From Cenococcum geophilum (Eukaryota), in NCBI GenBank assembly GCA_050273025.1, contig CP158635.1:3596001-3660000 (forward strand): a stretch of 64,000 nt of DNA, read 5' to 3'. Position numbers and translations under genes: made by a program. Of this stretch, positions 1-52,269 are shown in pieces (position 1 is the first letter of the stretch; every line of letters starts with the position of its first letter). The notes under the pieces were generated by a model, which did no database searches, was not told the origin of the DNA, and was given only the letters and a program-made list of their open reading frames with translations.

Positions 1-499
1 CGTAGTATTCCTAAGACTCTAATACCTAAACCACAAAGAATTAATTAAACTTTTTATTACCACCTTAAGTCACTTGGTAATCCTTAAATAACCCTAAATA
101 AAGCTATATAAGGTAACTATTAATTAGGACAACCTTAAGCTTCTATTTACCGCCTTTTGTTATAAGTAGAAGTGCCTTATAACTCGCTGCTTAGACCTAG
201 AACTAAAATCTAAAATTTCCACAACTGTCCACCCTATACCCGAGGAATCCACCAGATTCCACCAACCTAGGAATTTTATTAAATTCCACCAACAATCCAA
301 AAACTCCACTGAATTTTATAAGTTATTACTAAGCACTGTACCGCCCCGAGCTAAGCAAAAGCTTAAGCTCTATATACGAAAATACTAGAAGAACTAGTAT
401 TCCACTATAAAAAGGATTCTTAAAGAACCCGAACCCGAATTTAATACTAATTCTATACCTAATACCGAACCTAAACCTAAATAAGAAACTATAGACAAT

Positions 500-3400
500 C
501 TAAGCGAGCTTAGCACCCTAGATATCCGCATAATTGGAGCTACCCCGCTAGCGCAACTTGCTAAGAAACCCGAGTATACGATCTTCGCTATTATAATAGC
601 CGATATTAAGAAGGCCTTAGCACTAAAGAAGCATACTAACCCTACCACAAAGGTACTAATAGAGTATTATTATTGCCTAGATGTATTTTTATAAAGGGAA
701 GCCGATAAGCTACTAGAACACCAATTATACGACTATAAGATTATACTTAAAGAAGGAAAGCAGCCTAGATTTGGACCCTTATACGGGATATCCTAAAATA
801 AACTTTAAGTGCTATAAAAGTATTTAGACGAGAACCTAAGCAAAGGATTTATTAGAGCAAGCTCGTTGCCTATAGCCGTACTAGTAATCTTTATTAAGAA
901 ACCTAGCGGCGGCCTACGCTTCTATATAGACTACCGAGCTCTTAATACCGTTACCGTTAAGAACTAATATCCGATCCCGTTAATATAAGAAACGCTAAAC
1001 CAACTAAGTAAGGCTTATTACTACACAAAGCTCAATATCATCTCTATATTTAACCGTCTCCGCATTATAAAAGGGGACAAATAGTTTACCACATTTCGTA
1101 CCTAATATAGACTATTTAAGTACTTAGTAACACCCTTCGGCCTTATAAACGCTCTAAGCTCGTTTTAATATTATATAAATAACACCCTACGCCCCTACCT
1201 AGACATCTTCTATACTGCTTATATTAACGACATCCTAATATATAGTAATAACCTAACCGAATATTGGAAATACGTTAACCTTGTCCTCTAAGCCCTATAC
1301 GGAGCTAGTCTATAATTAGATATAGATAAATATAAGTTTTATAAAACGGAAGTCCTATACCTTAAACTTCTTATTTTTATAAACGGTATATAAATAAACC
1401 TAAAGAAAATCGAAGTAATTGTAAACTGGTAAGAACCTGAGAACGTTAAGGACGTAAAAGCCTTTATAGGATTCGCTAATTTCTACTAACGGTTTATTAA
1501 TAACTTCTCCGCCCTGGCTTTACCCCTTATAGCTTTAACCCAAAAGGATAAAGTCTTTATCTTTAATAAGGAATATAAGAAGGCCTTTACCTATCTAAAG
1601 GTCATGTTTACTACTGCGCCTATACTCTAACACTTTAACCTAAACTGAATAAGTGTTATAGAAGCCAACTTATCTAACTACGTTACTAAAGGCATCCTAT
1701 CTTAATATAATAAGGATAGAGTATTGTACCCTATAGTATACTTCTTAAAATAACTAAGCCTAGCCGAATATAACTATAAGATCTACGATAAGGAATTATT
1801 AGCTATTATTAGATGTTTTAAATAATGGCGACCTAAACTAGAAGGCACTAGATTTCCGATTAAGGTTCTTAGCAACTATAAGAACCTATAATACTTTATA
1901 ACCATAAAACAGCTAAGTTATTATTAGGCCCACTAGTTAGAATATCTATCTTGTTTCTAATTCTTAATTATATACCGCCTAGGCGTCTAAGGTTAGAAGC
2001 CTAATACCCTAACCTAATGCTCGCAAAACGCGCTAGCCCTAGAAGAAGCGCGCTCTTACCGAAATTAGACCCTACTTTACCCTAAACTATTTAACCCTCC
2101 TACTAAAGATCTTACGGTATACGTCCTTAAAATAACTAATCGATTGATTAAACAGATTATAGTTAACGAATACCCAAATAACGAGTTTATCTAAGAGACG
2201 CTTAAGCTAATATAAGATAGCATTAAACGCTCTAAAAAGATTTCTCTAAGTAAATACGAAGCTTATAAAAACCACTTATATTACCGGAACCGTCTAGTTA
2301 TCCCTAATAATAATAAGCTTAAGCTTAAACTCCTTAAATATATATACGATCTACCTATCGCCGGCCACCTAGGCCGAGGAAAAACCCTAGAACTACTCTA
2401 ATGGGAGTATTATTAGCCGAATATGCATAATATAATACAAAGGTATATCTTTAGCTGCTACACCTGCTGATAAGCTAAGGCCTCGCATAAGATATATAAC
2501 GGCCTTTTAAAGCCGCTGCTTGTTCCGGACTAAAGATAGAAGGATATCTTAATTAACTTTATTGTTAACCTTCCTAAGAGTAGAGGCTGCACGAATATTA
2601 TAGTAGTTATAGACCAACTATCTAAAATAAGATACTTGATCGCCTGCCCTAATATATTAACGCCTACCGTTGCCTAACTATTCCTAGATTATATATAGAA
2701 ACTCCACGGACTCCCTAAAACGATTATCTCCAATAGAGGTAGCTAGTTTATTTTAGTATTCTAGAAAGAACTAACTACTTAACTCCGCATTAAAGCACTA
2801 TTATCTACTACGTATTACCTAAAAACGGATGGCTAAATGGAACGCGTAAATACTATAATAGAATAGTATATTTGGATATACACGTCGTATTTATAGGATA
2901 ACTGGATTAACTGGCTTGTATTTGCTGAGTTTACTATAAATAATTCCGTCTCGGAAACTATAAAAGTCTCCCCATTCCTAGCCAATTACGGCTAGTACCT
3001 ATAAATGGGTTTTAAACCCTTTAGTAATGTTCCTTACCCTATTTATTACGCCTTATAAGTTATAAAAGCAAATAAATTCGTAAAAAAGATAGAGGAACTA
3101 TAATAGTTCCTTACTAATGAGATAATATAGGCTTAATCTGTCTATAAAGCCGTAGCGAATAAAAAATAAACCCTAGCACCGGCCTACTAAATTGGTAATT
3201 TTGTCTGGCTAGATATAAGAAATCTAAACACAAAACGACCTACTAAGAAACTTAATTAGAAGAACGCTGGCCCTTATAAGGTTGAAAAGGTTATCTCTCC
3301 TTATGCCTACCGACTAAAGCTCCCTAATACGGTTAAAATCCACCCCGTATTCCATACGTCAGTCCTCTGCTCTACTGCCCCCGTATTAGACGCCCTACCT

Positions 3401-3645
3401 AGATAGATATAAAAACCTCCCCTACTAGTTAAAGTGGATAGTAAGAACGAGTACTTTGTTAAAAGAATTAATAATATTAAGTATAATAAACGGAAACGCT
3501 AATATATATATCTTATAAAATGGAGAGGCTTTACTAAGTCCTTATAGGAACCTATTAACTTTATAGGACTTATATAAGCCGCAGAAGACTTTTACGAACT
3601 CCACCTAGAACTACTACAGCCCTATCTCGCAGAAGCTCGAGTTTA
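500..3645 (+). pseudogene. pol: pol (RT-RNaseH-integrase-chromodomain) of element A with many RIP stops
   Basis: Domain motifs in Gypsy order in one frame, interrupted by TAA/TAG at Gln/Trp/Arg positions. Start is approximate. Confidence 0.9.
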
Positions 3646-3657
3646 AAGGGGGGGTAC

Positions 3658-4027
3658 TGTTACGGGATACCCCTGTGATACCTTGCACACGTCTACCTGT
3701 TTCTATTGACTTAGCAATTAAAGACTAACCGCGAAATGGCAATCTAATGGCAATCTAATAGCAATCTAACGGCAATTTACGGCATTCTGCTATATTCTGC
3801 TAAGTTCTACCAAATTCTGCTAAGTTCTGCCAGAACTACGACCTAAACCCTATTCTGCCTATGCACGTATTAACTAAGCAACTAAGTTAACGATATATAC
3901 CCTTTCTTCCCATTCTCCTACCTTCTTTCCTTACGCAATGTCTTAACCTCCTTATATAGTTTATGTATATAGCTTAATAATATCTACCTTGCTATATATT
4001 ATCGTCGCTTATACTTACTCCGTGATA
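3658..4027 (+). repeat. 3' LTR of element A (about 370 bp)
   Basis: Starts TGTTACGG just after the PPT and ends CCGTGATA (RIP form of CCGTGACA). Contains AATGGCAATCT and TTCTGCTAAG tandem repeats and a TATA followed by a pyrimidine tract. Confidence 0.85.
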
Positions 4028-4507
4028 TTAAGGACGGAAACATTTCGCCATTATAATAGAGATCCTAGAACCCTATAAGGGGAAGCCTATAAAATTTATA
4101 GGAGAATTATTAGGGATACTATCTAAGGAAGACGCTGTTTAAGAATAAGTAGTAGCAATATAAGAAGAGGTCTTAGGGATTTAGAAAGACCCTTAGGGAT
4201 AAAAGGGGAGTATCCGGTCTAGCACCGGAGATAAGTAATAGAGTTAATGGTATAAAGAGGAGTAAAAAGACAGCCTATAAAGAATTAAAAATTTTAAGAA
4301 ATTATAAAGCACCTATAGGAATATTACCCGTTTATTATATATAGGGATTATAGTAGTATACTACCTTTATATAAATTGCTACCAAAGCTTAGAATAAAGG
4401 CATCCCTAAAGTATAAAGTTAATTCCTAATAATAGGCATCCTAGAGGCACCTGAGAAGAACCATATAAAGCTATTTTATAAAAAAAAGGAAAGAACTAGA
4501 TAATAAC

Positions 4508-5325
4508 TTAAATACTAGCAACAGTAACAAGAGCCTCCCCTTCCATCTTAATGTTATTATTAATAGTATTATCGGCTCCTCTATCCCTAGAAGCATTAGC
4601 ACTTCCACTAATATTTTTCTTAGAACGATAGGTACTGGAAGAATTAGCACGGGTAGAAGACTGGCAAGGAGAACATTTATCTAGACTTTTGTTACTATCC
4701 TTAGTATCCCTAAGCTCTAAATTAGCATCTAAGCAGGGATCCAAAAGCCGTTAACTAAGAGAATAAGTATAGTCCCTAAATGTGTTACTAGAGAAACTTA
4801 CCTAGCTAGGGTAGCCCGCGTAAGAGTACGAATGTTATTATTAATAAGGGTAAGCTGTTCGCATATACGTTCCTAGATACTATATATCCAAGATTATTAC
4901 GTCTCTATAATAGTAAAAACCCTTATAGAATTAAAGAGTCTGCAAGTAAGGGAAGACACCTTCTATCCCCGCCTGTTACTATTAAAATATTGGCGGAAAT
5001 CTTAAATGGCGCGTTAGAGCCTATAAGTCTTATATATATAGATAGCGGGGATCTAGCATAATTAGCGAAATTTAGAATAAGATAGAATGGGAAATACTAG
5101 GACGCAGGTCTTTCTCCTACTGCAGCAATAGGAGCACTTAGATTTATTTTCGCTAGAGTAAGGTATCTTATAGACGTAGGAAGGATCCTACGTAAGAGTA
5201 TAAATGTAGCGATAATAGTATTTTAGGGAAACTGCTGTAGGAGTAATAGACGCTGTCTAGGGCGTCACTAGGAGAGGAATAATACTACTGCCGGTCTAGG
5301 GACGCGCAAAAGGACTATAAGCTAT
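4508..5325 (-). pseudogene. Antisense spliced gene in element B: Cys6 zinc-cluster-like motif, helical region, Ser/Asp-rich tail
   Basis: Reads KYYYRYIYTLT*DPSYVYKIPYSSENKSKCSYCCSRRKTCVL, then intron 5097-5053 (GTATTT..GCTAAT..TAG) and intron 4801-4755 (GTAAGT..TAG, 47 nt). Removing the second intron joins the frame to the 4508..4744 ORF. Confidence 0.65.
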
Positions 5326-5920
5326 TATAAGAGAATACTCTAAGAAGTTAGTATTATTATAAGAGATGAGGTAGAAATCCTATTGCTTATAAATATGTTA
5401 TAAAAAGAGAATAAAGCAGCTATAAAAGGATAGCTAAAGATATGGAAGCTAAAAGCGGAGATATAGAGGAAACAGTCTGCTAAAAGATAAGACAAATAGT
5501 GTTGTTAATAAAAAGACGCGTAAGAGGCGATAGCTTATAAACTGGAAGAAAATTAAAATAAAGACGTTATTATCAGAACCCATTTTAGGTAAATAGGGAT
5601 AGTAGCTTATAGGTGCGTTATATAGGACAACCTCTAGATTAACTTATAACAAACTCTTATAATAAGAAAGGTAAATCCTATCCAATTTTTATTATTATTA
5701 TTTTAGTTCCATTACAAAGGCATTATAAGAAACTATAGTGGGAGAAGAGTAAAGGAACTAAGGATAAAGTAAGGTTTTACGCTAGTAAAGAACTAGCTAT
5801 AAGCCGCATTATAGAGTACCTTTCTACTAAGAATTTTCCCTAGTGGTTTTAGCTAGAACTTTATAAAAGCTTAGTAAAGGCGAAGTCTTAGAGGACTAAG
5901 ACCCTTAAAGGGGAGGCAAT

Positions 5921-6238
5921 TATAACGGAATTCCCTAGAAGGTACATATTAGATAAGACAGAAGGAGGTCTTATCTATATTCTATTTACGTTTTAGAAGA
6001 CACGGTTAGATAGATAAGGGGTAAAGGGTTTAGCTAGCGTCTTAAAAGGATTATATAGGGAGCTAGTTCTCCTCTAGAGAAGGATTAGCAATTAGTCTCT
6101 AAACAGAAGAGGTTAGAAAGCATTTATCCTTTATACGTGAAGATTATTCTACCTTAACTTATCTTTTACTTGCCTATAACTCGTATTCTACACTGTTAAT
6201 TAGATAATCATACGTTCTAGTCAAACTGGCCTCTTATA
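5921..6238 (+). repeat. 3' LTR of element B (about 318 bp)
   Basis: TATAAC (ancestral TGTAAC) after the PPT, internal TATATAGG, ends CTTATA. The partner LTR is not in the window. Confidence 0.6.
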
Positions 6239-9200
6239 ACTAGCTTCCACGGTTAGATATTATTAAATTAGAAAGTCCGTGTAGCTTAAAGACGTACTTA
6301 ATAAAACATTCGGCTACTAATATTATATTAATTAAGTCTATAGGAATTATATATCGCATTTTTATAAGATAGTTAATAACTACTATAACATTCGTAAACC
6401 TATTACTATTAGGTAGATTAACTATAAAGTTAATTAAGATATCTCACCATCTTTATATTAGAATTAGTAATGGTTAAAGTACTCCTTACTTCTTTATATA
6501 AGAGGTCTTCCCATATATATATATTCTGTATATTTAAACGTATTTTTGTATATAGTTATGCATTATAGGCCAGTAATATACTTATTAGATAATCTTATAG
6601 GTCTTTATATAGCTAGGATGCCCTACTATAGGGGAATTGTATACAAATTTAAGTATCTTAAATTATAAGGGTTTAGAATTTGGGATTACTATCTTCTATT
6701 AATAGTATAACCGATTATTATGGATTTTGTATTTAGCGAATGTAATATCTTTATATTACCGTTTCCCTGTTTAAATTACTTTTATTATATCTACTATCTT
6801 AAAGGTCGTTCTTAAATTTATGCTTTATTAATTTATTTCTATTAAGCTTTGCGTTTAAAAATATAGGGCGTAGTTTCTTAAAGCGTTTAGGGGGTAGTAG
6901 AATTTATAATTAATTTATAATCTATTCGTTAGAGGCGTTTATAGGTAAGTTTTATAATTATTATATTAATAAGTTAGGCTTCTAATTAAGTTTACTAAGT
7001 TAGTATGTAATCTTAAAGTTAAATTATAAGAGGTATTCGGCCTAACGAATTTAGCGCTATATTAATTGCTTTATAGTTATAAAGTACTATAGGTTTTTAT
7101 AGTCCGTTAATACGCGTATTAGGAATAATAATCCTTTAAGTTTTAGGCGCTATTATTTAAAGCATTTAATAATTATAAGTAGTTCCTTATTATGTATCTT
7201 ATAATTTAATTTAGCGGGGGTAAGTTTCTAGGAGGGGAAGGCTACTAGGCGTAGCTCGCCGTTCTTATTATATTGTAATAACACTCCTCTTAGTATATAA
7301 TTAGACGAGTCTGTTTTAATAATATATTTAAGGTCCAGATTAAAGTAGGTAAGAATTAGAGTAGTTATAAAATGATATTTTAAGTTATTAAAAGCTTATT
7401 TATATTTAGTAGTCTATTTAAATCTTATATTCTTTCTTATTAAGTTTACTAATAGCTAAATAATTTTTAAGAAGTGATTAATAAATTAACGGTAGAAATC
7501 CTTAGATGTCTTATATACTACTAGAACTTTCTTAGTTTATAATTATAGCGATTTTTTTAGGGTCTATTTTAATTCCGTTACGGGATATAATTAGGCCTAA
7601 GTATATAACTTTAGATATATAGAACTTATATTTCTTAATATTATATTATAAGCCCGCGTCTTATAGGTATTTAAGGACTATTTAGATGTGCTTCTAATGC
7701 TTAGAAAGTAAAGATAAATAAATTAAGATATTATTAATATACGCGGTAATAAATATATTAAGGAATTCGCGAAGCATATTATTAACGTATTATTAAAATA
7801 TACTAGGACCGTTCTTTATACTAAACGGCATTACTAGGTATTTAAAAAGTCCCTATTATATACGGAAAGCCATATACTTTTTATCTCCTTTATAAATACG
7901 GATTTAATTAAAGGCAGCGACTACGTTAAGCTTTATAAAGTATTATACTTTCGCTAAGTAATTAAGCGTTTCTTAAAGTAAAGAAATCGGATATTAGTTT
8001 TAAATTATAATTATATTTAGGGCTTAATAATTAATATAGAACCTTAAGCCTCCTCTAGGTTTCTTAATAAATAGTATAAGTAAGGTAAATAGTAATTAAC
8101 TAGGGCGAATAAATCCTTTCTCTAGGTGCTCTTTAGGGTATTATTATATTATAAGTAGCTCTTCTTATAACATACCGTATAATGGGCCAAACTTTAGCGT
8201 TATACTAGGTTTAAGTTCTATCTTAAAGTTATACTCGTCTTAATATAGGGGTAGTTAGTCTATAAATTATTTCTTAAACGTATTAATTAGATTATAATAT
8301 TCTTTAGGTATAAGAGGTTAGGGGTTAATATATTGCTTTAGTTATAACGCCTTCTTAATATCTTTTAGTGTTATAGTAAAGATCTTATAGTCTCGTTTTC
8401 TTACTAACAAATAAAAGGGTGCGGCTTATACTATATAAATTTTAAGGGGTTTTAATATATTATCTTCGCATTCTTTACCGCGATTAGCAGTTATAACTTA
8501 GTTTATGGTTTGTAGTAAGGGTAATTTATATTATATTAAATTTAAATAGTTATATATATATTTATAGGGTAAGTAGTATTTTAAGTAATAACTTTAGCAG
8601 TAGGTTATACGGAATTTTAGTATTTCTTTAACCTAGCTAATTAAAGGGTTATATTATTTTAGCTATTTGTGTCTAAGTATTACCTTATAATACTTTAAGG
8701 GTGTTATAAATAGGGAAATATATTTAAGGTATTCGCCTATCCGTATCTTTATAAAAGCGTAATACGTTAGTTTACTATATATTAAAGGCTTACTATTAAA
8801 GCCTTATAGGCCTTAGGGCTTATTAAGTTTCTTTAAATTTAAGTATTAAGTTTTTACGTAGTTTATATTAATAAAGCCTATACTAGTAGCTCCGCTATTT
8901 ATAAAATTTTATACTTCCTTTTATTTTCTAAGTGTTTAAATTTCGCTAAGTATATTAAGGGAGTTATATTATATATTAGCGCTAGAAGAGCCTAGATACT
9001 TATACTCTTCCACTTTTTATCTTAAGGCGCGACTTAGCCTTAGGATAATTTGTTTTCTAAGTTAACTAAAGGTAAGATACTTTATAGCGACCTAGTATAA
9101 TTTATAAAATAAGTATAACTTAAGGACTAAGAGGAGCTACGGCGGACCATTTTAAAAGGGTAAGTTTAGTAATCCCTTTAAATATATCCCTTTTTTCCAT

Positions 9201-10650: not shown

Positions 10651-10921
10651 TGTTCGTACTAACTTAATAGTACGAGTGAGTTAGATCTAGGGGCACGAAA
10701 TACGTATAGTATTATATACTCGCTTAGATAATGGTGACTGTCGGTTGTATAAAGTAGACTACGTAGTCTATATACTGCTGCGCCTCCCCCCTAATTAGTT
10801 AGTGCTTTAGAAGTGCACTAGACGCGTAAGCGGGTGGTTAGTATACCAAACGCGTAAACGCGTACTTGGCGTACCGAACGCGTAAACACGCACTAGGTAC
10901 GACAGGTGCTATAATTATACA
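10651..10921 (-). repeat. 3' LTR of Copia 1
   Basis: TG...CA direct repeat of 19830-20100, differing mainly by transitions. Confidence 0.95.
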
Positions 10922-19829: not shown

Positions 19830-20100
19830 TATTTATACTAACTTAATAGTACGAGTAAGTTAGATCTAGGGGCATGAAATACATATAGTATTATATGCTC
19901 GCTTGGATAATAGTAACTGTCGGTTATATAAAGCAGACTATATAGTCTATATACTGCTGCGCCTCCCCCCTAATTAGTTAGTGCTTTAGAAGTGCACCAG
20001 ACGCGTAAGCGGGTGGTTGGTGCACTAAACGCGTAAACGCGTACTCGGCGTACCGAACGCGTAAGCACGCACTAGGTACGATAGGTGCTGTAATTATACA
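19830..20100 (-). repeat. 5' LTR of Copia 1
   Basis: Direct repeat of 10651-10921, followed on the element strand by CTAATTAGT. Confidence 0.95.
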
Positions 20101-21498
20101 CATTCTTTTATAAGGAATTTTTTTAGTTAAAGTATTAAATCTCCTAATTCCTAAACTTTTATTAGATGCTATCTGTGTATATATTTAGTATTTCTATATT
20201 ATTACTTATCTAGCGCCTAATATATCCTTATAGAGTACTTTTAATTTTTCTCTTTTAGATTCTTATATATTTTGTATATATTGTCTATATATATAATCTA
20301 TAATAGCGTATAATATACTAGGTGCTTTAAGTTAACTCTTAATTTATCTTTATCTTTAAGTTTAAACCTTTATTATATTAATCTAAACATTATAACTTTA
20401 TTTATAGGTATTAAGATATATTTCTTACTTCTCTAATCCTCTAATTATTCCTCTAGGTCTTTTAGTATTATAATTAAGGCTCCTTTAATATAACTTATTA
20501 CCTTTTCTATAATAGGGTAGTCCTAAATAGCTTTCTTATTTAACTATATATAGAAATCTTCCCACTTATCGTTATATCGCTGCCTATACTACTTTTAGTA
20601 TAGCTACTAGAGTATATATAGCTTATCCGTAAAGAAGTATCTTCTTATTACTATATTATAATAGCCCTTTATATACCGTTTTTTAAATTTAGTAAAAATC
20701 CCTAAATCCTCTTTATTTTCTAGTTTAGTAAGCTACTTAGCTCTTAGCGTACCTGCCCTAAGCCTATTAGTAATTCTTTATATAGATGCTCTATCCCTTA
20801 TATAACCTAGTATACTAATTCTCTAATCTAGTTTCTATTCTTATTATATAAGGATTCTCTATCTAAATTTCTCTATATTTTCTTTTAGTTTTTGCCTTCT
20901 AAGTAGATCCTTAAAGTCTTCTTACTTCTTAATTTTAATTTATTTAATAGTCCTTATTTATATCTAAAAGTCATAGTCCTATAAGATTCTTAATCCTAAG
21001 CTTACTTCTTTCTTAAGCTTTACTCTAGCCTTAGTCTAACTAGGCTTCTATAGTGTTCTTATTTTATTTTAAAGGTTTTTTAATCTTACTTATCTTATCT
21101 TAAGAGTGTTATACCTTTAGAAAACTTTATCCTAAGCTTATTTATATATTACTAAACTAAGCCGTTACTTTACTCTATCGGTTATTATCTATTATAGGTC
21201 CTTAAGCTTACCTTATCTTATCTTAAAAATCTTAGTTATCTCTTATCTCTTCTTAAGAATCTTAAGCCCGTAGCCTTTTGCCTTTATTAAGTACTAAAGT
21301 AGTTTATTACCCTACTTCCCTTATATCTTATAAAGCGATAGATATTATATTTAGTAGGGTTCTAATCCCTACTAATATTCCCTATTCTGTAGTGGAATTA
21401 TCTTTTACCTCTTTTATAATATTTTTAAGGTCTATATACTCTTAATAAGCTACTTTTATTACCTTATTATTACTAAATATTTTACCTATATTAAATTT

Positions 21499-24600: not shown

Positions 24601-27350
24601 TCTCGTAGCTATCTACTAGTTTAAAATTAAGTTGCTTTGTCGACTACGTATAGTAGGGGGGAGCCGCTAATATATATAATGTTAACGATAATATTGTAGT
24701 TAAAATTAACGTCGTCTTATAAAGTAAAGCGAAATCTACTTAGAGATCTGCTAAACTTCTAGCAGTAGTAGCAGAGTTTGGTTAGCTCTTTAATAGCGGA
24801 TCTATTAGTATTATGGCCGTAGCCAGTCTTATTAAGAAGCTTTTATAGTCTATTAACTAATAAGTAACTAAATTAACGGTGTAGACGTCGTAGCTCTACG
24901 TTAGTTAAGTAGCAAGGGTTTGCGTTAAAGGACTCAACTAGATAAAACTATAAAGAGAAGCTCTATATAAGAAACGGGTGGCCAAATCGGCTAACTACTG
25001 GCACCTTTTTAGTGCGAGTAATAATAACGTCCTTTAGGTTATCGTATTTGATATAGAGTCTATCCATATCTACTAAGCAAAGTAGGAAAGAAGTATCTGC
25101 TTTAATAATATAAAATTATACCTTACCTATAGGGCTGTTAACATCTATAGTTTTAATAGACGTAGAGGCTCTAATCCTAAATTAGATAGTTACTTAGCCC
25201 TTAGTTAACGTATTAAGACTTATAGACTTATCTACGGCCTATAGGGCTTAGAATTGGCCGTAGCCAGCTATAGACTTATATAAAGCACCTATATCGATTA
25301 TAATTCCTATAAAGACCGTCAAGGTGTATTATAACGCTATAGTTGTGATTATATTATAGGCGAATGGGTTAGTCTCCGTGTAAGGTTTTGTGGTAGACTC
25401 CGTAGTAAGTTCTAAAGCCATAAGTAGGTATATATAAGCCTTATTAGCTAGCTCTACGCTTATAGAGGTTACTTCCTCTATATTAAGTGTTCTAAAGGTG
25501 GTAATATAGGCAGAACTATTATTAGGTTCTCCAGCATTGCTCTTAGAGTCGTTAGCGTCTTATATATAGGCTTTAAAGTCTAAGTTATCCTCTTTATCTC
25601 TTTTACAGGCGGCAACGTATTGTTTAAAGTAGTTATTAAAGTTACCCTTATTACAGCCCTTAATATTAATAAAACGTCTCTTATAGTCGTCTCTAAATTA
25701 ATTACGCTTCTTTTTTATATATTTCTATAAACGGCAGTCCTCCTTCTTACAGATATAGCACTTAGCCTTTAGTCCACCGTTAGTTCTATAGGGGCGATTA
25801 CTGCCATAGCGATTAGTGTTTCGGTCTTAATTTTGGTCATTTTAATAGTAACGTCAATCCGTAAAAAAGGTTTGGTAAGACGATCTTATTAAGGCCTATA
25901 GGGGGTATTCTTTTTCCTATGTAATAATAGAGGATTATAGCTTACTAATTAACTAAGAGAGGTCTTCTAAAGGGTTAGAGATAGCGATATGGCATACTAG
26001 CACTTCCTGGCAAGTAGTAACCAACTTATTTGTAAAAATGCGGTTCGTATAAAAGTCTAGGTATAGTCTATAACGTTGCTTTAGCAGTTTATCTATAAGC
26101 AGTTAGAAGTTCTAATAAATTGACTTATTAAGGTTCTCGTCCATAACTCCTTAAAGGGTTATGCTATTCCACTCCGTAAGGTTCTTATAGTAGTATTTTG
26201 GCCCTTTAAAGAACTATTATATATAGTTACAGGCTTCCGTAAAAGGTCTTGACTTAAGGTTACTATTATAGTAGTGGTCCTAAGCAAGCCCTTTTAGCAT
26301 ACTAAGGAATGCTACTACGTAGCCTTCTGGTGGTAAGCTAGATCTCTTACAGATATTATAAAAGATGGTCAGCTTAAAGTTAAAGCTATTATTAACTCCA
26401 TCGTACTTTTAGTCGTCTATATAGATCTTCGCAATTATAGCCACCTCCTTGCTGTATCTAGGTCCTTACTCCGCACTAGGCACGGCTAGTTTAGGTGGTA
26501 TATATATATATAGCTGCTGCGGCTGCTATAGCTACTGTGGCTGCTACGGCTGCTGCTCTCTTAGCTATAGCAGTTGGTCGATAAAAGTGTGGATTTAGTT
26601 ATAGTTAGAGGATTAAGAACCGGGAGGAGTAGTAAGGGTAGCGGGGGTAGCAATTAAAGTAGCTGGCGGTATAGTAACCGGAGTAGCTAGTAATACGGCA
26701 GCTGGGATAGCTAGTAGAGTTGGTGGAGTAGCTAGTAGTAGGGCTAGAGGTGTAGCAAGCTTGTCTAAGGTTGAATTAAGTTAATCTTGCAGAGTTATTG
26801 TAATTATTAGTTTTACCTCTATAAGGGCCACGATAAGCTCCTTATCCGTCTATTTATAAAACTCTTCTTTATTAGTAACGTCCGTTAGCACCTTACTAAG
26901 GGAGTATCTCTTATCTTACTTAGCAATATATACTCCTCTCTTAACTAGGTATTAACAGATTCCTATTTTAGTATTAAATTATACTCGTTTAAAGGTCTCT
27001 AGCGTAAAGTTCTTAAAGTCTTCCTAAAACACTATCTATAGTGTAAAGTCTATAAGGTTAAATCGTGTGTATAGGTGCATCTTGGTCTCTATATACTCCG
27101 TTAAGTCGTTATCTATAGCCGTCTCTAAGTTAATTCCGTAGCCGTATTTAGTAATTCTTTCCTTCCAGTTAATTTCTATATTGTTATGTCTTTATATATA
27201 AGGGTAGGTGTAAGGGTAGGTATAAGGGTAGTCGTCGGTTTAAAGAAGTTAAGGTTTAAAGTAAGGATGTAAAGATATATATGTGTCCTATTAACAAATC
27301 TACAGTTCTTAGAAACTGTAGATAATTCTTAGTAAAGATATGGTCCTTTA

Positions 27351-29724: not shown

Positions 29725-32700
29725 TATTACAGACGCTTTAAGTACAATATTACAACTATTAGGAGAGGAGTTAGAAGCAGCTAGTTAGTTAATTAAGGTA
29801 TAGTCTAAAATAGAGCTAATAGAACTATATAATAAGGAATAGTAACTAAGGTTATATAATAAGCTATATATTAAACGAGAGGAATAGAAGGAACTTACGT
29901 ACCTTATATATAAGGAGGATTTCTTAGAAGTACGGTTGTGTATTTAAAGAACTATAGTCCCTACTTAGATAGTTCTTCTCTTTGTAGTAAATCTTAGAAT
30001 ATAATTAGAGTTAATCTATTAGGCAACCACTCTACTAATTATTATTACGTTATTAACTTCTTGTTTACCTATATACTTAGCCTATTAATAAGTCTACTAT
30101 AGTTCTTACTATAAGGCTTTGTTATATATTTACTATTAAGGTTATAGTATTAATAAAGTTAAATAACATACCACTAAAAGTAGTAGCTATAACGACGTCT
30201 ATAGTGGCAACTATATTAGTATAGTAGATACTAACTTATAACTAGTTACTATTAAATAGCTATAGGAAATAGTTAATTAATTAATAAATAATAATAAAAT
30301 ATTTAAAGAAAGGATTAATAGAATTGGAGTAGCTAAGGTTAAGTTACCCTTAATTAAAAGATTCTTAGGGGAGAAATTAAAACTTAAGGGATTCCTTATA
30401 TAAATACACTTTAAGGTTATATAACAAGGAGTAAAGTTAAAAACGCTTATAGATTAAATTACTTACGCAGGATTATTCTTAACGGGAAGGGTACTTAAGT
30501 AGTTTAAGCTTTACCTTATAGAGGTATAGAAGTATAGTATATGTTCTTAAGCTAAAATAGGTTTATAGAATAATTAATATAAATATTTAAAGACCTAGAG
30601 GTAACTATAATAGTAAAAAAAAAGCTTTAAAACCTAGTATAAAGAACTTTGGTAATTAAATATATAATAGAGTTTTAGATATTAGTAATATAGGTTAAAT
30701 AAAATAATAAGGCACTTATAGTATAGTATAAATAGGGACTAAAGATAAAAAATCTAAGATATAATTATTCTAATAGAAGATGCGGATACTTTTAGGGATT
30801 TAATTAATTAAGTAATTAAGATTAATAATAGAATCTACTAAAGAGAGCAGACTAAGAAGGGTTAGGATAGAGTTTTATAGTTATATAAGGCGTAGGGTAT
30901 ATAATAATAAAGTTAAAGTTAAAAACTATAGTATAGCGTAGAGCTAATAGACCTAAGTAATATTAAATAAAATAAGAAATAAAATAAACGACTATAGAAA
31001 TCTAGAGGATAAGAATTAAGTAATTAAAGGTTTAAGAAGTAAAGGCTAAACTAGGGGTCTTAGTAGTAGAAGATGTTTAGGTAAACTCTATAGTAAGAAA
31101 AATAGTTTAAAGAAGGAGCTTATATAAATTATAGAAAATAGAGTTACTATATTAAAGACTATAGAAGTAAGTAGAGTTACTATATAGTAAAAGAAATAAG
31201 ACTAGTAGAAGATATATATATATAGAGGGATAATAGTATACTGCAAGGAATAAAAGAATATTTAATTAAAAGTTTTACATTTTATTATAATAATATATAC
31301 TAAATTTATAAAAAATATTAAGTATAATATAAGCTATTAGCTATAGGAGCTAAAATTATTAAAGTTTAGAGAAACTAATAAACTAGTTTGTAAATTGGGT
31401 ATTAAGGATAATAAATTTAATATAGGCAAAATATTTAATAATAATAAGGTAATAAAAGTAGCTTGCTAAAAGTATATAGACCTCTAAAATATTATAAAAG
31501 AGGTAGAAAATAATTCTACTATAAAATAGGGAATATTAATAGGGATTAAAACCCCACTAGATATAATATCTATTGCTTTATAAAACGTAAGAGAAGTAGG
31601 ACAGTAAACTACTTTAGCACTTAATAAAGGTAAAAGGCTAAAGGCTTAAGATTCTTAAAAAGAGATAAAAGATAATTAAAACTTCTAAGACGGGATAAGA
31701 TAAGCTTAAGGACCTATAATAGATAATAACCGATAGAGTAAAGTAATGGCTTAGTTTAGTAATATATAAATAAGCTTAGGATAAAGTTTCCTAAAGATAT
31801 AAGATTCTTAAGACAAGATAAGTAAGATTTAAAACTCTTAAAATAAGATAAAAACACTATAGAAGCCTAGTTAAAATAAGGCTAAAGCTAAGCTTAAGAA
31901 AGAAGTAAGCTTAGGATTAAGAATCCTATAGGACTAAGATTTTAGTAATAGAATAAGGACTATTAAGGTAATTATAAGCAAGGCTTAGTAATAGAATAAA
32001 ATGTTAATACTATAATTAAGAAGTAAGAAGACTTTAAGGATCTACTTATAAGACGTAAACTAAAAGAAACTAGAAAGGAATTTAGGTAAAGAATTCTCAC
32101 TTAGTAAGAATAAAAGCTAGATTAAAAAACTAGTATATTAGGTTATATAAGGAATAAAGCACCTATATAAAGAATTACTAATAGGCTAAGAATAGGTATA
32201 CTAAGAGCTAAATAGCTTATTAAACTGAAAGATAAAGAGGATCTAGGAATCCCTATTAGGTTTAAAAAATAATATATAAAAGGCTATTATAATATAGCAA
32301 TAAGAAAATACTTCCTTATAGATAAGCCGTATATACTTTAGTAGCTATACTAAAAGTAGTATAAATAAAGGCATAATAATAAGTAGGAAGATTTTTATAT
32401 ATAGTTAGATAAGAAAGTTATCTAAGACTACCCTATTATAGAAAAGGCAATAAGTTATATTAAAGGGGCCTTAATTATAATATTAAAGGATCTAAAGAAA
32501 TAATTAGAGGACTAGAGAAGTAAGAGGTATATCTTAGTACCTATAAATAAAGTTATAATATTTAGATTAATATAGTAAAGGTTTAAACTTAAAAATAAAA
32601 ATAAGTTAAAAGTTAACCTAAAGCACCTAGCGTATTATATATTGGTATAGATTGTATATATAAATAATATATATAAAATATATAAGAATTTAAAAGAAAA

Positions 32701-34763: not shown

Positions 34764-37700
34764 TCTTAGTGTAGCCTATCTACTTAACCTTATACTATAT
34801 TTTATTGTTAATGTCCTTATAACTAACGATCTTTAAAACTTACTATTCGTCTTCTTCCTATCCTCTATACGTGTCTGCCTTATAGACTAGTAGCTTAACA
34901 TTTCTATATACTAGCTTTAGTATTGCAATATACTGTATAGAATAGATCTTTATCTTAGCTAGTAAACTTAATTTAAATATAACCGGTAAAATCCTTTATA
35001 TAATTTTAAAAGGTCCTAGTCTAACGTAGTTTAACTTCTTACTTAGTTATTAACTCTTAAAATTTTTATATAGTAGCTATACCTTATCTCGCTCCTTAAG
35101 ATCTAGTCCCTTAGATCTCTTAGCATTATAGTACCTTTTTATTCTCTCTTATACTTTCTTTACTAATTCTATAAGGTCTATATAAAGATTTATTAATGCC
35201 TTTATTCTTTCTTTAGCTGTGCTACTCGTTTTCTTTACTTACTATAATAATAACGATATTCTTAGCTTATATCTATAATTTACCTTAAATGGTAATATGC
35301 CTATACCTTCCTATAGCGTTGCATTATATACAAACTATATAACTAGTAATAATAATACCCAATTATTCTATGCATAATTAATATAATGCCTTAAATACTG
35401 CTCTAGTGTCTAATTTAGTCTTTCTATTTAACCGTCTGTCTGCAGATAATATATAGTAGAAGTTACTACTTAAACTCCTTACTCCACTAAGAACACTTCC
35501 TAAAATACTACTATAAGTCTTAGATCTCTATCTAATATAATCTTACTTAGTGCTCTATATCTTATAAACACTTCTTTAATATAGATTTTAGCGACATCTT
35601 CTACTAATATTTCTTCTATACATACTATAAAGTATCCCCACTTTATAAGCTTGTCTACTATTACTAAGATTACATTATAATCTTATCCAGTAATAGGATC
35701 TCTTAACTTTAGTAACTTAATAATAAAGTCCTATAATATAACCTCCTATAGTCTCTCTAGTATTTTAATAGGTTATAGCCCTCCATATAGCTTATACCTT
35801 ATTAGTTTATTCCTTTAGCAATCTAAATATTCCCTTATAACTTTTCGCGCTAAGCCCTAGATTCTATTAATAATATACTCCTCTTAAAGTCTTTACACTA
35901 AGCCCGTAGCTCCGTTATATCCTTAAGTTAGTCCCTTATAGAAGTCCTCTATAAACTACTCTGCTATACTTCTTAGGATATACTTTACTTCTTAGTTTTT
36001 GTATATATCCATCTATAGATCTTCTAGCTATACTTCTAGAATTCTTTATACCTAAAAGCTTTCTAGTATCTTATAAACTCTTTCTAGTTCGTTACTCTCT
36101 TAAGTTGCTATAATTTTTAGATAATTATACCTAATCAATCCGTCTATATCCTTTCGTAGTAAAGCCCCTAATAGCTTCTTATTATTTTATAGTTTAGCCT
36201 TTTAACTTAGAGCATCTACTTATATGTTATCTATACCCTTAGTATACTAAATCTTAAAATAGTATTTTATAAGTATCTCTGCCCATCTAACCTATCTTTA
36301 GTTAAGTTCCTTTATTATTAGGAATCCTATTAGGTTCTTATAATCTATCTTAATTATAAATAGTTTCTCTATGCCTTATAAAAATACTCTCTATTTCTTT
36401 AATACTATAATTATACCTAATAACTCCTTATTATAGATGTTATAGTTTAACTCTAGTAGTGTTATTTTCCAACTATAGTATACCACTAGGTGCCATCTAT
36501 TTTAATATTTCTATATAAAGCACGCCCCTAGTATAAAGTCTAATATATCTGTCTTTATAACCGTCTCTAGTCCTAGTTAATAAATCTTAAGAACTAGCTT
36601 CTAGGTAAATAGCTCCTTAACTTTCTTAAATAATTTCCGCTGTTCCTCTCCCTATGCCTATAGTTCTTCTTTCTTTATTAATCGCGTAAATAGCTTAATA
36701 TTCTTTAACTATTGCGCTATAAACCTTCTATAGTAATTACAAAACCCTAAAAATAATCTTAACTATATAACGTTCTCTAGTTCTTACCAATTTACTATAC
36801 CCTTAATCTTCTTTAGATCTATACTAAGTTGGCCTAGTTTAATAATAAATCTAATAAAATCGGTCTTCCTAGTAAAGAACTTGCATTTCTTAATTACTAC
36901 TAGCATCTATTCTTTTTATAGTCTCTTTAAGACCCATTTAACGTATTCCCCGTATTCTTCCTTACTTATTAAGTAGATAATAATAATATTAAGGTATACT
37001 ATAACAAATTCATCTAAGTGTTCTCCTAATATATTATTAATACGCTTTTAAAACGTTACTAGTATATTTATAAGCCCGAATTATATAACTAATAGTTTAT
37101 ATAGTCCTTCCTTTAACCTAAAGGCTGCCTTTTATTTGTTACCTTTCTTAATCCTAATCTAATAGTACGCCTATCTCAGATCTATCTTCGTAAAGATTTG
37201 CGCATTACCTATCCTATCTTAAATTTCGCTAATTAAGGGTAAAGGATACCTATCCTTCCTAGTAATGCTATTTAACTGTCTATAGTCAATATATAATCTT
37301 AGTTTACTATTTTTTTTTAGTATAAACAGTACTAGATAACCCGCTAATAACTATAATAGTCTAATATATCCCTTTTATAAGTTTTCCTAAATAAACTCTT
37401 TTAATACTCTACCTTCTTCTTCGGTAAGCTTATAGATTAGAAAGAACCTTAGACTTATTCCTAGTTTTAATTCTATTTTATAGTCCTATGCTATATATTC
37501 TAACAGCTTTTTACTTTCCGGTAAGTATAGTTTCTTACTATACTTATGGTATCTCTTTAGTACGTAACTTAAGCCTTACTTAATCTCTTTATATATCGCT
37601 CTAACTTAGTACTATACTAACTTAGCCTGTTATTATATCTTGCGGCGTTAAGTATCTCTATTATTAACCTAACCTATAATCCAATTAATCTTTAGATTAT

Positions 37701-39655: not shown

Positions 39656-42106
39656 CCTTTGGCCTTTTGCCTTTATCGAGTGCCGAAGTAGTTTGCTGTC
39701 CTACTTCTCTTACGTTTCGCAAAGCGATAGATATCGTGTCTAGTAGGGTCTTAATCTCTACTAATATTCCCTATTCTATAGTGGAATTATCCTCTACCTC
39801 TAGTGTAACATCTCTAATAGCTGCATATTCCTAGTAAACCGCCTTTATTACCTTATCGTTACGGAATATTTCGCCTACGTTAAATTTATTATCTTTAATA
39901 TCCGATCTACGAACTAGTTCGTTAGTTCCTTAATATTTTAATAAACTTAGCTCCTATAGCTAATAGCTTGCGCCATACTTAGCGTCCTTATAAATTTAGT
40001 ATGCGTTATTATAATAAAACGCAAAACTTTTAATTAAACACTCCTTTATTCCTCGCAGCATATTATTATTCCTCTATACGTATATATTATCTACTAGTCT
40101 TATCCCTTTTACTATATAGTAACTCTACCTACTTCTATAGTCTCTAATATAATAACCTTATTTTCCGTAATTTATATAAGCTCCCTCTTTAAACTATTTT
40201 TCTTGTTATAGAGTCCGCCTAAACGTCTTCTGCTACTAAGATCCCTAGTTTAGCCTCTACTCCTTAAACCTTTAATCACTTAATCCTTATCCTCTAGGTT
40301 TTTATAGTCGTTTACTCTATCTCTTATAGGCTTCTTTAGTACCGCTTAGGTCCATTAGCTCTGCGCTATACTATAGTTTCTAACTTAGCTTTAGTTATTA
40401 TATACTCTACGCCTTATATAACTATAGAACTCTATCTTAGCCTCTCTTAGCCTATTCCCTTTAGTAGATCTAATTATTAATCTTAATCGCTTAATCTATT
40501 AGTTCCCTTAGGGTGTTTATATCTTCTATTAGGATAATTACGTCCTAGACTTTAGCCTTAAGTCCTTACTTATACTGTGCCATAAGCGCCTTATTATTCC
40601 ACTCTACTTATATTGCCAGCGTCTGGAACTACGTTATATACTTAATTGCTAAGGTTTATTACGTAATATTTTAGAGTTTTCTTTTCGCTATGGTTACTGC
40701 CTCTAGGTCTCTAAATATTTATATAAGTTATTCCGCGAATCCTTCCTAGCTTAAGAATATAAACCGCACCTCTTAATTAGTGGTTATTATTCCGTTTACT
40801 TATATCTCCATAAGGTAAGGCTTAAACTATTTAAGTGCCTTCCCCGATAGGAATAGTCCTACATACGCTATTCGATCCATAGGTATTAGTAGCTTAGCTC
40901 CTTCTTGCGTAACCTTAAAGTATATCTATATAAGGAATCCCTTAAGCTTTAATCTTTCTCCTAAGTACCTTTCAATTAATAGTAGCTTAATCTTTACTGC
41001 TCTTATCCTATTAACCCTTTCTTCTAACGCTACATTATTAGTTATTAACTAGTTAACTATCTCCTATAGTTATCCAACCGTTACAGGTTGCTATAAGTTA
41101 GTGTCTGCTATACTAGTATTGTTACCTAACCTTAAAGTAGTTGCCGCCGTTAATGGCGTTATAGTAGCTGCTTTTAGTGGCATGTTATTTAACTTTCTAT
41201 ATTAATACCGTAACTAGGTAGTAATTGTATAACGGAACCTTATAGCAAGAACTACAATAGGCTTGTTAATGGGCTAGGTATATAGGAAATGTAAGTATAA
41301 AAGTTAATAACGTAATAATAACTGGTAGAGTGGTTGCCTAATAGATTAACTCTAATTGTATTCTAAGAATTACTACAAGGAAGGAACTATCTAGGTAGGG
41401 ACTAAGGGTCCTTAAATACACAACCGTACTCCTATAAAATCCTTTTTATATATAATATACGTCTTATACATAAGGTACGTAAGTTCCTCTTGTTTCTCTC
41501 GTTTAATACATAGCATATTATATAACCTCGGCTACTATTTCTCGTCACATAGTTCTACCGGTTCCATTTTAGACCGTGCCTAAATTAACCAACTAGCTTC
41601 TTCCAACTCTTCCCCAAGTAGTTATAACATTGTACTTAAAGCGTCCGTAACAAAAAAGTTAGTAAATTATATAGTATAGAACTATAAGATAGAGTTAGAA
41701 CTAAAAATAAGTTTAAGGTTCTTTTTAATTTATAAGCTTTACTTAAGAGGAGTTTAGAGTACTTAAAGAGTTTATTTAAAAAAACTTATAAAAGGGATAT
41801 ATTAGACTATTATAGTTATTAGTGGGATATCTAGTATTATTTGTACTAAAGAAGAATAGAAAACTTAGGCTATATATTAACTATAAATAGTTAAATAGTA
41901 TTACTTAGAAGGATAGGTATCCTTTACCCTTAATTAGCGAAATTTAGGATTAAATAGGTAATGCGTAAATCTTTATAAAGATAGATCTAAAATAGGCGTA
42001 TTATTAGATTAGAATTAAAAAAGGTAATACATAAAAAGTAGCCTTTAGGTTAAGAAAGGACTATATATACTATTAGTTATATAATTTAGATTAATAAATA
42101 CACTAG

Positions 42107-49932: not shown

Positions 49933-52269
49933 ACTAGTAATGTTTTAGAAAAGAATTAATAGTATATTAGGAGAATACCTTAATAAGTTTATTATGGTAT
50001 ACCTTAATAATATTATTATCTACTTAATAACTAAGAAAGAATACAGGGAATACGTTAAATAGGTCTTAAAGAGACTATAAGAAAAATAAATACTAGTAGT
50101 AATTAAGAAATGCAAGTTCTTTATAAAGAAGACTAATTTTATTAGATTTATTATTAAATTAAGTTATATTAATATAGACCTAAAGAAAATTAAAGCTATA
50201 GTAAGTTAGTAAGAACTAAAGAATATAATATAATTAAGGTTATTTTTAGGGTTTTATAACTATTATAGAAGGTTTATAATATAATAGTTAAAGAATATTA
50301 AACCGTTTACTAAACTTATAAAGAAAAAGGAACTATAGGTATAGGGAGATAAATTAAAAAAGTTATTTAAGGAACTTAAAGAGTTATTTACCTAGGAACT
50401 AATTCTTAAGATTTACTAACTAGAACTAGACATGGTTATAAAAATAAATATATTAGACTTTATACTAGGAATATACTTATAATAAAAGTATAGGAATATA
50501 TAGCATCTAATAGTATACTATAGTTGGAGGATAATACTACTAAAGTTAAACTATAACGTCTATAATAAGGAGTTATTAGGTATAGTTATAGTATTTAAAA
50601 AATAAAAAGCATTCTTATAAGGCGTAGAAAAACTATTTATAGTTAAGATAAATTATAAGAACTTAATAGGGTTTCTAATAATAAAAAAACTTAATTATAG
50701 ATAAGTTAAATAGGTAGAGATGCTTATAGAATACTATTTTAAGATTTAGTATATTAAAGGAACTAAGAATATAAGAGTAAATATACTTACTAGAAAAGCT
50801 AAACTATGGAATAATAAGAAACTATTAGGAGTAATACTATACAGAGATAAGGATAAATAGATTAGATATAACTACCCTAAACTAATAATAACTTAAGAGG
50901 ATAATAAACTAAAAAGAGTCTATAAGATACTAGAAAGCTTTTAGGTATAAAGAATTCTAAAAGTATAACTAGAAGATTTATAGATAGATATATATATAAA
51001 TTAAGAAGTAAAGTATATCCTAAAGAGTATAGCAGAGCATTTTATAGAAGATTTCTATAAGGGAATAACTTAAGGACATAATGGAGCAATAGGCTTAGTA
51101 TTAAGACTTTAGAAAGTTTTTTTTATTTTTTTTATATCTATTATATTAGAAAGAATATATTATTAATAGAATTTAAAATATTATAAGAAAAGTAATAAAA
51201 GAATATCTAAATTGTTAAAGGAATAAACTAATAAGGTATAAGCTATATAGAGGGCTATAACCTATTAAAATACTAAAGAGACTATAGGAGGTTATATTAT
51301 AGGACTTTATTATTAAGTTACTAAAGTTAAAAGATCCCTATTACCGGATAAGAGTATAATATAATCCTTATAATAGTAAATAAGTTAACTAAATAGGGCT
51401 ACTTTATAGTATATATAGAAGAAATCTTAGCGAAGGATATTACTAGAATCTATATTAAAGAAGTGTTTATAAGATATAGAGTACTAAGTAAGATTATATT
51501 AGATAGAGATTTAAGATTTATAGTAGTATTTTAGGAGGTATTCTTAGCGGAATAAGGAGTTAGAGTAGTAACTTTTACTATATATTATCCGCAGACGGAC
51601 GGATAAATAAAAAGATTAAATTAGATACTAGAATAGTATCTAAGATATTATATTAATTATATATAAAATAATTGGGTATTATTATTACTAGTTATATAGT
51701 TTATATATAATATAATACTATAAAAAGGAATAAGTATATTACTATTTAAGGCAAATTATAGATATAAGTTAAGAATATTATTATTACTATAATAAGTAAA
51801 GAAAATAAGTAGTATAGCTAAAGAAAGAATAAAGACGTTAATAAATCTTTATATAGACCTTATAGAATTAGTAAAAAAGGTATAAAAAAGAATAAAATGG
51901 TATTATAACGCTAAGAGATCTAAAGGACTAAATCTTAAGAAAGGGGATAAAGTATAGCTACTATATAAAAACTTTAAAAGTTAATAACTAAGTAAGAAGT
52001 TAAACTATATTAAACTAAGACCTTTTAAAATTATATAGAGGATTTTACTAGTTATATTTAAATTAAACCTACTAGCTAAAATAAAGATCTACCCTATATA
52101 GTATATTACGATACTAAAGCTAGTATATAAAAATATTAAACTACTAATTTATAAAGCAGACACGTATAAAGAATAAAAAGAAGATAAATAGTAAGTTTTA
52201 AAGATTATTAGTTATAAGGACATTAACAATAAAATATAGTATAAAGTTAAGTAAATAGGCTATAATAAG

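Follow-up and report, generated by a model that had tools for sequence, protein, structure and literature searches.

A candidate relic of an antisense accessory gene downstream of pol in a chromovirus family represented in Cenococcum geophilum

Results

A constant region follows pol in element C

We analyzed a 64,000-nt stretch of fungal DNA from Cenococcum geophilum (assembly GCA_050273025.1, contig CP158635.1, positions 3,596,001 to 3,660,000 of the forward strand; hereafter, the window), with a focus on positions 4508-5325. This segment lies between pol and the polypurine tract (PPT) of a Ty3/Gypsy retrotransposon, here called element C, and its minus strand can be read as a candidate multi-exon gene (Table 1). 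Our preferred reading, to which we assign a probability of roughly 0.5, is that the stretch from 5325 to 4508 is the relic of an antisense accessory gene of C that was killed by repeat-induced point mutation (RIP). Whichever reading holds, the copy in the window is an ordinary dead transposon tail. The DNA of the window is AT-rich (GC 0.21-0.41), and its first 12 kb carry a strong RIP signature (TpA/ApT 1.3-2.05; (CpA+TpG)/(ApC+GpT) 0.15-0.71).

A self-BLAST of 3501-6500 within the window found no second copy of the C region, the sole match being to integrase. The longest exact words in the region that are free of RIP-prone dinucleotides measure 18 nt. Metagenome contigs were scanned with a 49-letter pattern from the Cys-motif region described below (14 plain bases, the rest purine/pyrimidine-ambiguous), which yielded 51 loci of element C, 49 of them from a single metagenome. 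The loci were caught through a pattern inside the Cys-motif region, and C copies lacking that region are hence invisible to this count. Codon counts across the family rest on 50-51 rows per codon, and the family alignment splits into a 40-row and a 14-row subfamily. On window positions 3400-6400 we also aligned contigs from three DNA runs together with reads of the RNA run X21 (runs and records X1, X2, X8 and X21).

BLAST matched 29 of the 51 loci to the window in one piece, from 4026/4027 to 6236-6247, at 81-89% identity; the remaining 22 are interrupted by contig ends or insertions. One common pol tail sits directly upstream of the C unit in 33 of the 34 loci that have upstream DNA. This upstream sequence encodes reverse transcriptase (RT), RNase H, integrase and a chromodomain, as judged by Pfam (Chromo at 1.4e-6 in locus L008) and by tblastn with the pol of B, a second Gypsy element that lies next to the C region in the window. 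The C family consensus restores the pol frame, with the stop at nt 2403 of the 2420 nt that precede the unit, and in 10 loci a second copy of window positions 5919-6239 sits 5.13-5.25 kb upstream of the unit. The shared pol tail, the long terminal repeat (LTR) pair and the restored frame place the feature in C. The family thus has an LTR pair, the order RT-RNase H-integrase, a chromodomain at the end of pol and a PPT before the 3' LTR. We conclude securely that C is a 7.7-kb Ty3/Gypsy chromovirus with 0.32-kb LTRs, a gag-pol with chromodomain, a constant 1.9-kb region, a PPT and an LTR.

A preliminary description, made from the window alone, had proposed that a multi-intron gene with a zinc-cluster-like Cys motif lies antisense between the pol tail and the PPT of plus-strand element B. 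The position held up in every copy found; the element is C, not B. That description had also staked its reading on the segment being linked to the same pol and LTR elsewhere, and for C this linkage is present, at the 33 loci with the pol tail and the 10 with the LTR pair.

All C copies are RIP-mutated (GC 0.28-0.39, TpA/ApT 1.47-1.73), and the window differs from the sequences of the DNA runs almost entirely by transitions. The candidate gene is dead in every copy seen, marked by C-to-T and G-to-A changes, the loss of starts and numerous stops. The window copy itself has lost its start and carries at least eight in-frame stops in the proposed frame.

Ancestral cysteines in candidate exon 1

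The minus strand reads ...ENKSKCSYCCSRRKTCVL, ending at 5098, and contains the sequence KCSYCCSRRKTCV with an intact C-x2-C-x6-C, as the preliminary description had stated. The codon at 5325-5323 is ATA in the window; across the family it is ATG in 20 of 50 copies and ATA in 29. An 85-aa open reading frame (ORF) from the protein databases, P0052, starts at the same ATG and spans the Cys motif.

All four Cys codons of the motif are ancestral, as TGY occurs at 5136, 5127, 5124 and 5106 in 23, 11, 29 and 9 copies, respectively. Upstream of the motif, three codons that read Tyr in the window are TGY in 32 (5220), 11 (5217) and 18 (5208) copies. Ancestral Cys is therefore well supported at seven codons of candidate exon 1 by these counts of 50-51 copies each. 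A fourth upstream Tyr codon, at 5172, is TGT in just 3 of 50 copies, and one neighboring window Tyr goes back to an ancestral Arg (CGT in 16 copies). The preliminary description had noted upstream Tyr codons with the spacing of the first three Cys, and that RIP turns TGY into TAY. A former Cys identity is borne out by the counts; the spacing is not C-x2-C-x6-C. Instead, the family pattern is C-C-x2-C-x11-(C)-x11-C-x2-C-C-x5-C, where the bracketed Cys is the one found in 3 of 50 copies. Judging from this spacing, the Cys-rich stretch could form two CxxC knuckles.

The motif by itself is somewhat unusual. Six-frame translation of the 64-kb window holds a single stop-free C-x2-C-x6-C, the one at 5136-5104, and at least one was found in 4 of 100 dinucleotide-preserving shuffles of the window, which is only modestly rare given the many motifs that a reader might have sought. 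RIP can also create Cys codons: TGC at 5211-5209 on the minus strand, present in 17 of 50 copies, is the RIP product of an ancestral CGC (Arg).

A candidate frame-joining intron and candidate exon 2

Both short GT..AG stretches of the preliminary description, 5097-5053 (45 nt) and 4801-4755 (47 nt), are present. The second, candidate intron 2, links the Cys-motif frame exactly to the frame of the ORF at 4508..4750, as AG|intron|T. As reconstructed from the family, its ancestral form (GTGAGT...GCTAAC...TAG) is a textbook fungal intron. In candidate intron 1 the 5' site, GTATTT, is weak and the branch point reads CTAAT. An alternative intron 1 of 96 nt, 5097-5002, ends at an ancestral TAG|G, keeps the frame and removes all stops of the frame.

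Splice-like patterns are slightly enriched on the minus strand. In the family consensus, a strict intron pattern gave three matches on the minus strand, two of which overlap in the LTR, and none on the plus strand; minus-strand shuffles averaged 0.91 matches, with at least three in 20 of 300, which makes the excess marginal. A loose pattern gave 25 minus-strand matches vs a mean of 15 in shuffles.

The second half of candidate exon 2, translated from the consensus and inspected by eye, appears to have hydrophobic residues spaced 3-4-3-4 apart.

Two further features of the preliminary description were lost on comparison with the family. The third intron proposed at about 5390-5341 has ATAAGC in the consensus and no GT, and its TACTAAC in the window is the RIP product of TGCTGAC. 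The pyrimidine-rich leader at about 5650-5800 is merely the complement of the purine-rich run that precedes the PPT.

Three-base periodicity in the candidate last exon

The segment 4511-4834 has a strong three-base periodicity (chi2 63 on 324 nt, p ~1e-11), which exceeds that of any 300-nt piece of true pol (chi2 at most 20) and ranks third of 2123 windows across the raw 64 kb. No tandem repeat was found in 4511-4834. On the minus strand, codon position 1 is G in 0.42-0.49 of cases, and position 3 is T in 0.50-0.61 and A in 0.09. Of the six consensus frames, the one with the Cys motif contains the fewest stops (18 of 627 codons, vs 26-45 in the other five); for comparison, the coding frame of pol has 15 stops in 806 codons and its non-coding frames have 28-50.

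Profile searches with the copies retrieved 32 short database ORFs (35-98 aa) in the frame of the last exon, from several metagenomes. Of these, 23 reach the last profile position, all 23 share the stop, and some are much less RIP-like. A word-indexed protein search that displays source names returned one 'hypothetical protein' and no named relative, and the ESM Atlas model of one database ORF, P0021, is disordered (pLDDT 0.26).

Observations that weigh against a coding unit

A number of results count against reading 5325-4508 as a former gene. The longest ORFs of the consensus are 178 aa on the plus strand and 108, 108 and 99 aa on the minus strand, lengths that fall inside what shuffles (mean 108, 95th percentile 150) and the non-coding frames of pol (128, 105) give. 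When two GT..AG introns are placed freely, the minus strand yields 208 codons vs 190 +/- 37 in shuffles. The candidate exons are also the most diverged segments between the two subfamilies, with transversions at 1.7-3.6% vs 0.37% in pol and 0.2-0.55% in the flanks, and these show no third-position excess (6, 4 and 9 transversions at positions 1, 2 and 3, only 19 events in all); transitions are unusable for codon-position analysis owing to RIP. Neither ORF-length statistics nor subfamily divergence speaks for a gene under selection. The earlier proposal of an antisense multi-intron gene finds backing in the ancestral ATG, the Cys codons, intron 2 and the three-base periodicity, and none in ORF lengths or divergence.

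Stops and splice sites add to these points. In 41 of 46 copies the last-exon frame is interrupted by TAA at 4684-4682. With the 45-nt intron, a TAG stays in frame at 5004-5002, where the three bases are T in 49 of 49 copies, A in 48 and G in 1, and A in 37 and G in 12; with G at 5002 in 12 of 49, we read this TAG as ancestral. The 96-nt alternative, which would remove it, is without a clear branch point. The periodic pattern continues through intron 2, where 12 of 16 third positions are pyrimidines, and it is equally in register with the codon-aligned plus-strand ORF 4469-5002. Finally, a TAG lies at 5259-5257 in 49 of 50 copies. That codon is CAG in the remaining copy and Q in P0052, and it was probably CAG ancestrally. 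Full RIP of one site in some 50 copies does therefore occur, which weakens the argument that a near-universal stop must be an ancestral one.

Searches for relatives and transcripts were likewise unfavorable. Among 1.84 billion representatives, only 35-98-aa ORFs of the same element were recovered and none longer, and no Pfam family matched the region in the window, in the three best copies, in 26 copies or in the database ORFs. At a similarity floor of 85%, in the ~12% of RNA run X21 that was read, no read was placed on 4107-5722; an un-RIPed C copy would differ from the window copy by about 15%, which is the edge of this placement. The 108 reads that were placed on the aligned region all lie on the LTRs of B or C; none is more than 95% alike, and 106 fit in part only. 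On the B LTR (3500-4100) the first mate is minus, and on the C LTR (5824-6126), which drew about a dozen reads, it is plus. This opposite mate orientation suggests that relatives of the C LTR are transcribed antisense; it would fit antisense RNA made by un-RIPed relatives and, unlike the results just given, counts for the gene reading. The C-LTR reads are few, come from other copies and stop short of the candidate gene.

As an observation in its own right, transversions between the C subfamilies cluster in the 850 nt of 4511-5361, a pattern that may mark a hypervariable cassette or a recombinant patch.

Discussion

Alternative explanations of the region

The strongest alternative is that the 1.9 kb between pol and the PPT is a non-coding 3' untranslated region with cis sequences near the PPT. 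On this account the Cys motif, the GT..AG stretches and the short ORFs arose by chance on a pyrimidine-rich strand, and the periodic segment is cryptic low-complexity sequence or a long non-functional fossil. Much of what is set out above agrees with it: ORFs and spliced ORFs no longer than in shuffles, a loose intron pattern with minus-strand matches above the shuffle mean, the highest transversion divergence exactly in the candidate exons with no codon-position bias, probable ancestral in-frame stops, the lack of homologues or of a family, a disordered model, and a segment bare of X21 reads. However, it leaves the periodicity of 4511-4834 hard to place, because the signal exceeds that of every pol piece, no tandem repeat explains it, and the other top periodic regions of the window resemble low-complexity coding sequence. 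Furthermore, the ATG, the Cys codons and the canonical frame-joining intron all fall on one strand, and the minus frame has the lowest stop density. We regard a plain spacer as possible, if somewhat doubtful.

An improbable second alternative holds that the plus-strand ORF 4469-5002 (178 consensus codons) is what is left of a third sense-strand gene behind pol, comparable to the env-like and other extra sense ORFs of plant elements. This is the longest ORF of the consensus (135-178 aa), and the periodicity has a register common to the plus and minus ORFs. Read as the complement of the minus-strand values, its third positions would be rich in C (0.49) and poor in A (0.09), which resembles ascomycete codon bias. 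Yet A would make up 61% of its first positions, and its second positions would have much G and little A, unlike proteins, whereas a G-rich first codon position is usual in coding sequence and fits the minus-strand reading. No ATG is found close to where the plus ORF begins, only the most permissive consensus makes it long enough to enter the upper tail of shuffles, and the 32 database ORFs belong to the minus frame, in a search confined to that frame.

The zinc-cluster identity of the preliminary description, in which the gene would encode a Gal4-type Zn(II)2Cys6 regulator or anti-silencing factor, antisense and with three introns, fared worst. The signature of this class is C-x2-C-x6-C-x5-12-C-x2-C-x6-8-C. 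The best six-Cys spacing attainable in the family is C-x2-C-x11-C-x11-C-x2-C-x6-C (i.e., 2-11-11-2-6), with a first loop of 11 residues vs the 6 required, and past the intact Cys triad, no frame or splice variant of the consensus holds a second one. PF00172 gave no match with E up to 10 in any of the six frames of window positions 3500-6300; nor was it found in 12 frames of the three least mutated copies (L008, L042 and L048), where only the Chromo domain of pol matched, or in 26 copies of the Cys-rich ORF and seven database ORFs, a test that RIP blunts. Searched against PDB sequences, a profile built from the 26 copies matched no zinc-cluster chain and returned only the unrelated ND3 (E 0.57). 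What the candidate product shares with PF00172 proteins is one ancestral C-x2-C-x6-C triad with basic residues (Arg/Arg/Lys) in the loop and, possibly, a helical part and an acidic tail after it. Although this triad, the three upstream Tyr codons that were once Cys and a candidate exon 2 that might form a short zipper before an acidic tail speak for a zinc cluster, we consider it very improbable because the spacing fails, the third Cys is seen in only 3 of 50 copies, no in-frame second triad, hidden Markov model match or PDB chain was found in the searches above, the third intron has no GT in the family, and one seeming Cys codon (5211-5209) is a RIP product.

A model of the former gene

We favor a former minus-strand coding unit from 5325 to 4508 because of its ancestral ATG, its ancestral Cys codons, the intron that joins the frames and the periodicity of its last exon. 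In this model, the active ancestor of C would have carried on its opposite strand an accessory gene of ~225 codons with one or two short introns. Its product would have started at the ATG at 5325, with a Cys-rich N-terminal part, a helical middle, and an acidic and basic disordered tail reaching to 4508. The gene would have been transcribed toward pol from a promoter of its own, and, lying antisense to the genomic RNA, it could have kept its introns through retrotransposition. From composition only, we guess that its product was a nuclear regulator of C that binds nucleic acids.

A bolder form of this model seems unlikely to us. It holds that C is a high-copy chromovirus family whose antisense, intron-bearing gene, driven by a promoter in or near the 3' LTR, encodes a Cys-rich, zipper-containing, acidic-tailed nuclear protein that controls element expression or host silencing, and that the hypervariability between subfamilies reflects an arms race rather than decay. 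HBZ of HTLV-1 is a comparable arrangement, an antisense gene expressed from a promoter in or near the 3' LTR.

Relation to known antisense genes of LTR elements

The closest parallel in fungi is brtn of the element Boty, reportedly first described by Zhao in 2011. The cited passages present brtn as an antisense extra gene of Boty in Botrytis and Sclerotinia (PMC7264820, PMC8365987, PMC4227169, PMC5987419). Going by these passages, the C unit resembles it in that both belong to fungal chromoviruses and lie between pol and the 3' LTR on the opposite strand, are present in the copies of their families, are small and resemble no protein of known function. The two differ in that every C copy is RIP-dead and the C unit is only a candidate for transcription, and the comparison is one of layout, not of sequence. 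A search by name for relatives of C pol, made to test the likeness to Boty, returned generic Ty3 polyproteins only.

In plants, antisense extra ORFs between pol and the 3' LTR (aORF-3R) are described in the cited passages for gene23 of maize Grande, rice RIRE2, Silene Retand and Phaseolus PvRetro13, with some products nuclear and with an antisense promoter of its own in Grande (PMC7264820). The C unit corresponds to these in lying between the pol stop (~15 nt before 4027) and the PPT and LTR, and the whole 2.2-kb unit is found in 29 of the 51 loci, which were fetched via this region. As far as that source describes them, the plant ORFs share with C their position and orientation, their presence in most family copies and their lack of database relatives; they differ in belonging to non-chromovirus lineages and in being intact and expressed (PMC7264820). 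No homology is implied.

A further point of comparison is DUF3716 (PF12511), a Cys-rich domain that the cited passages report in transposon-carried fungal proteins such as REP9 of Zymoseptoria (PMC8232023). The likeness, to the extent covered there, is that of a small Cys-rich protein on a fungal mobile element (PMC8232023). In contrast, PF12511 was absent from all Pfam scans of C, a weak test, as RIP turned most Cys codons of every copy into Tyr codons.

If the relic is real, one more fungal retrotransposon family would join the few LTR elements known to carry their own antisense gene, which so far are Boty with brtn and several plant lineages; no function is known for any of these genes. With its many copies and two diverged gene versions, such a family would also be well suited to asking whether genes of this type are regulators under diversifying selection. 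The analysis carries two cautions for RIPed DNA. 'Hidden' Cys codons can be recovered from family counts, yet RIP also makes Cys from Arg (CGC to TGC, as at 5211-5209); and long spliced ORFs arise easily by chance on a pyrimidine-rich strand.

Other features of the window

Window positions 1-8473 form a three-level nest, in which B is inserted ~15 nt past the C pol stop and C lies within the integrase of a third, older Gypsy element. Owing to the insertion of B, the pol stop of C falls outside the window. Pfam scores for the B pol are 6e-19 (RVT_1), 2e-19 (RT_RNaseH_2), 7e-12 (Integrase_H2C2) and 5e-15 (SH3_Tf2-1), and Tandem Repeats Finder located short tandem repeats at 3735-3832 within its LTR. 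We place the end of B at 4027 because the depth of DNA contigs drops 5-10 fold past ~4027, reads and contigs of X1, X2, X8 and X21 diverge from the window at 4023-4027, and a B copy in locus L028 that matches window positions 3-4028 at 86% ends there. Contigs diverge again at 6238, just past the C LTR. In the older element, tblastn with the B pol matched 8473-7550, 7500-6967 and 6797-6243, and Pfam identified RVT_1, RNase H and Integrase_H2C2.

Table 1. Features at the nested locus, in window coordinates
Feature	Position	Strand	Basis
Element B pol (RT, RNase H, integrase zinc finger, SH3)	2..3601	+	Pfam, frame 2, X at stops
Element B PPT, AAAGGGGGGG	3645..3654	+	Read directly
Element B 3' LTR, TGTTACGG ... 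CCGTGATA	3658..4027	+	Sequence; depth drop; L028 copy
Element C post-pol region, 1.9 kb	4028..5906	+	All 51 loci match the window only from 4026/4027 on
Candidate exon 3, stop codon 4510-4508; consensus ORF open to 4834	4508..4754	-	ORF list 4508..4750; composition
Candidate intron 2, 47 nt; GTAAGT..TAG in the window, ancestral GTGAGT...GCTAAC...TAG	4755..4801	-	Strict pattern on consensus
Candidate exon 2, open in family consensus	4802..5001	-	67-codon open stretch 4801-5001, Cys-motif frame
Candidate intron 1, 45 nt, GTATTT..GCTAAT..TAG	5053..5097	-	Sequence
Candidate exon 1 with Cys-rich stretch; KCSYCCSRRKTCV at 5139-5101	5098..5325	-	Family codon counts; P0052
Element C PPT, AAAGGGGAGG	5907..5916	+	Read directly
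Element C 3' LTR, TATAACGG ... CTTATA (RIPed TGTAAC...TTACA)	5921..6237	+	Second copy upstream in 10 loci
Older Gypsy element, cut inside integrase (...NRGS) by C	6240..8473	-	tblastn, Pfam, sequence

Elsewhere in the window, very strong three-base periodicity (chi2 40-74 on 324 nt) was also seen at 55261-56544, 58081-58464 and 25501-26964. These regions hold low-complexity ORFs rich in Asp/Asn/Ser/Gly or Ala/Thr/Pro with no Pfam match, and may be disordered parts of other transposon proteins. The minus frame 25300-27098 is gag-like in look, with a K-A-K-C-Y-I-C-K-K-E-D-C stretch.

A BLAST within the window in a purine/pyrimidine alphabet found only a 72-nt likeness near the PPT. At this level 5869-5940, just before the C PPT, resembles 31619-31690 (plus strand), 47906-47977 (minus) and 21221-21292 (minus); the three other sites belong to another repeat family and share most columns over more than 500 nt. 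Further Gypsy pol remnants lie at 34918-37518 (minus), 43478-46026 (minus), 49955-52116 (plus) and 41759-42049 (plus), with 25-37% protein identity to the B pol, and no copy of 4028-5906 was detectable at these four remnants. Finally, 10657-10821 and 19836-20000 form a 165-nt direct repeat with 93% identity and a spacing of 9179 nt, perhaps the two LTRs of a further element.

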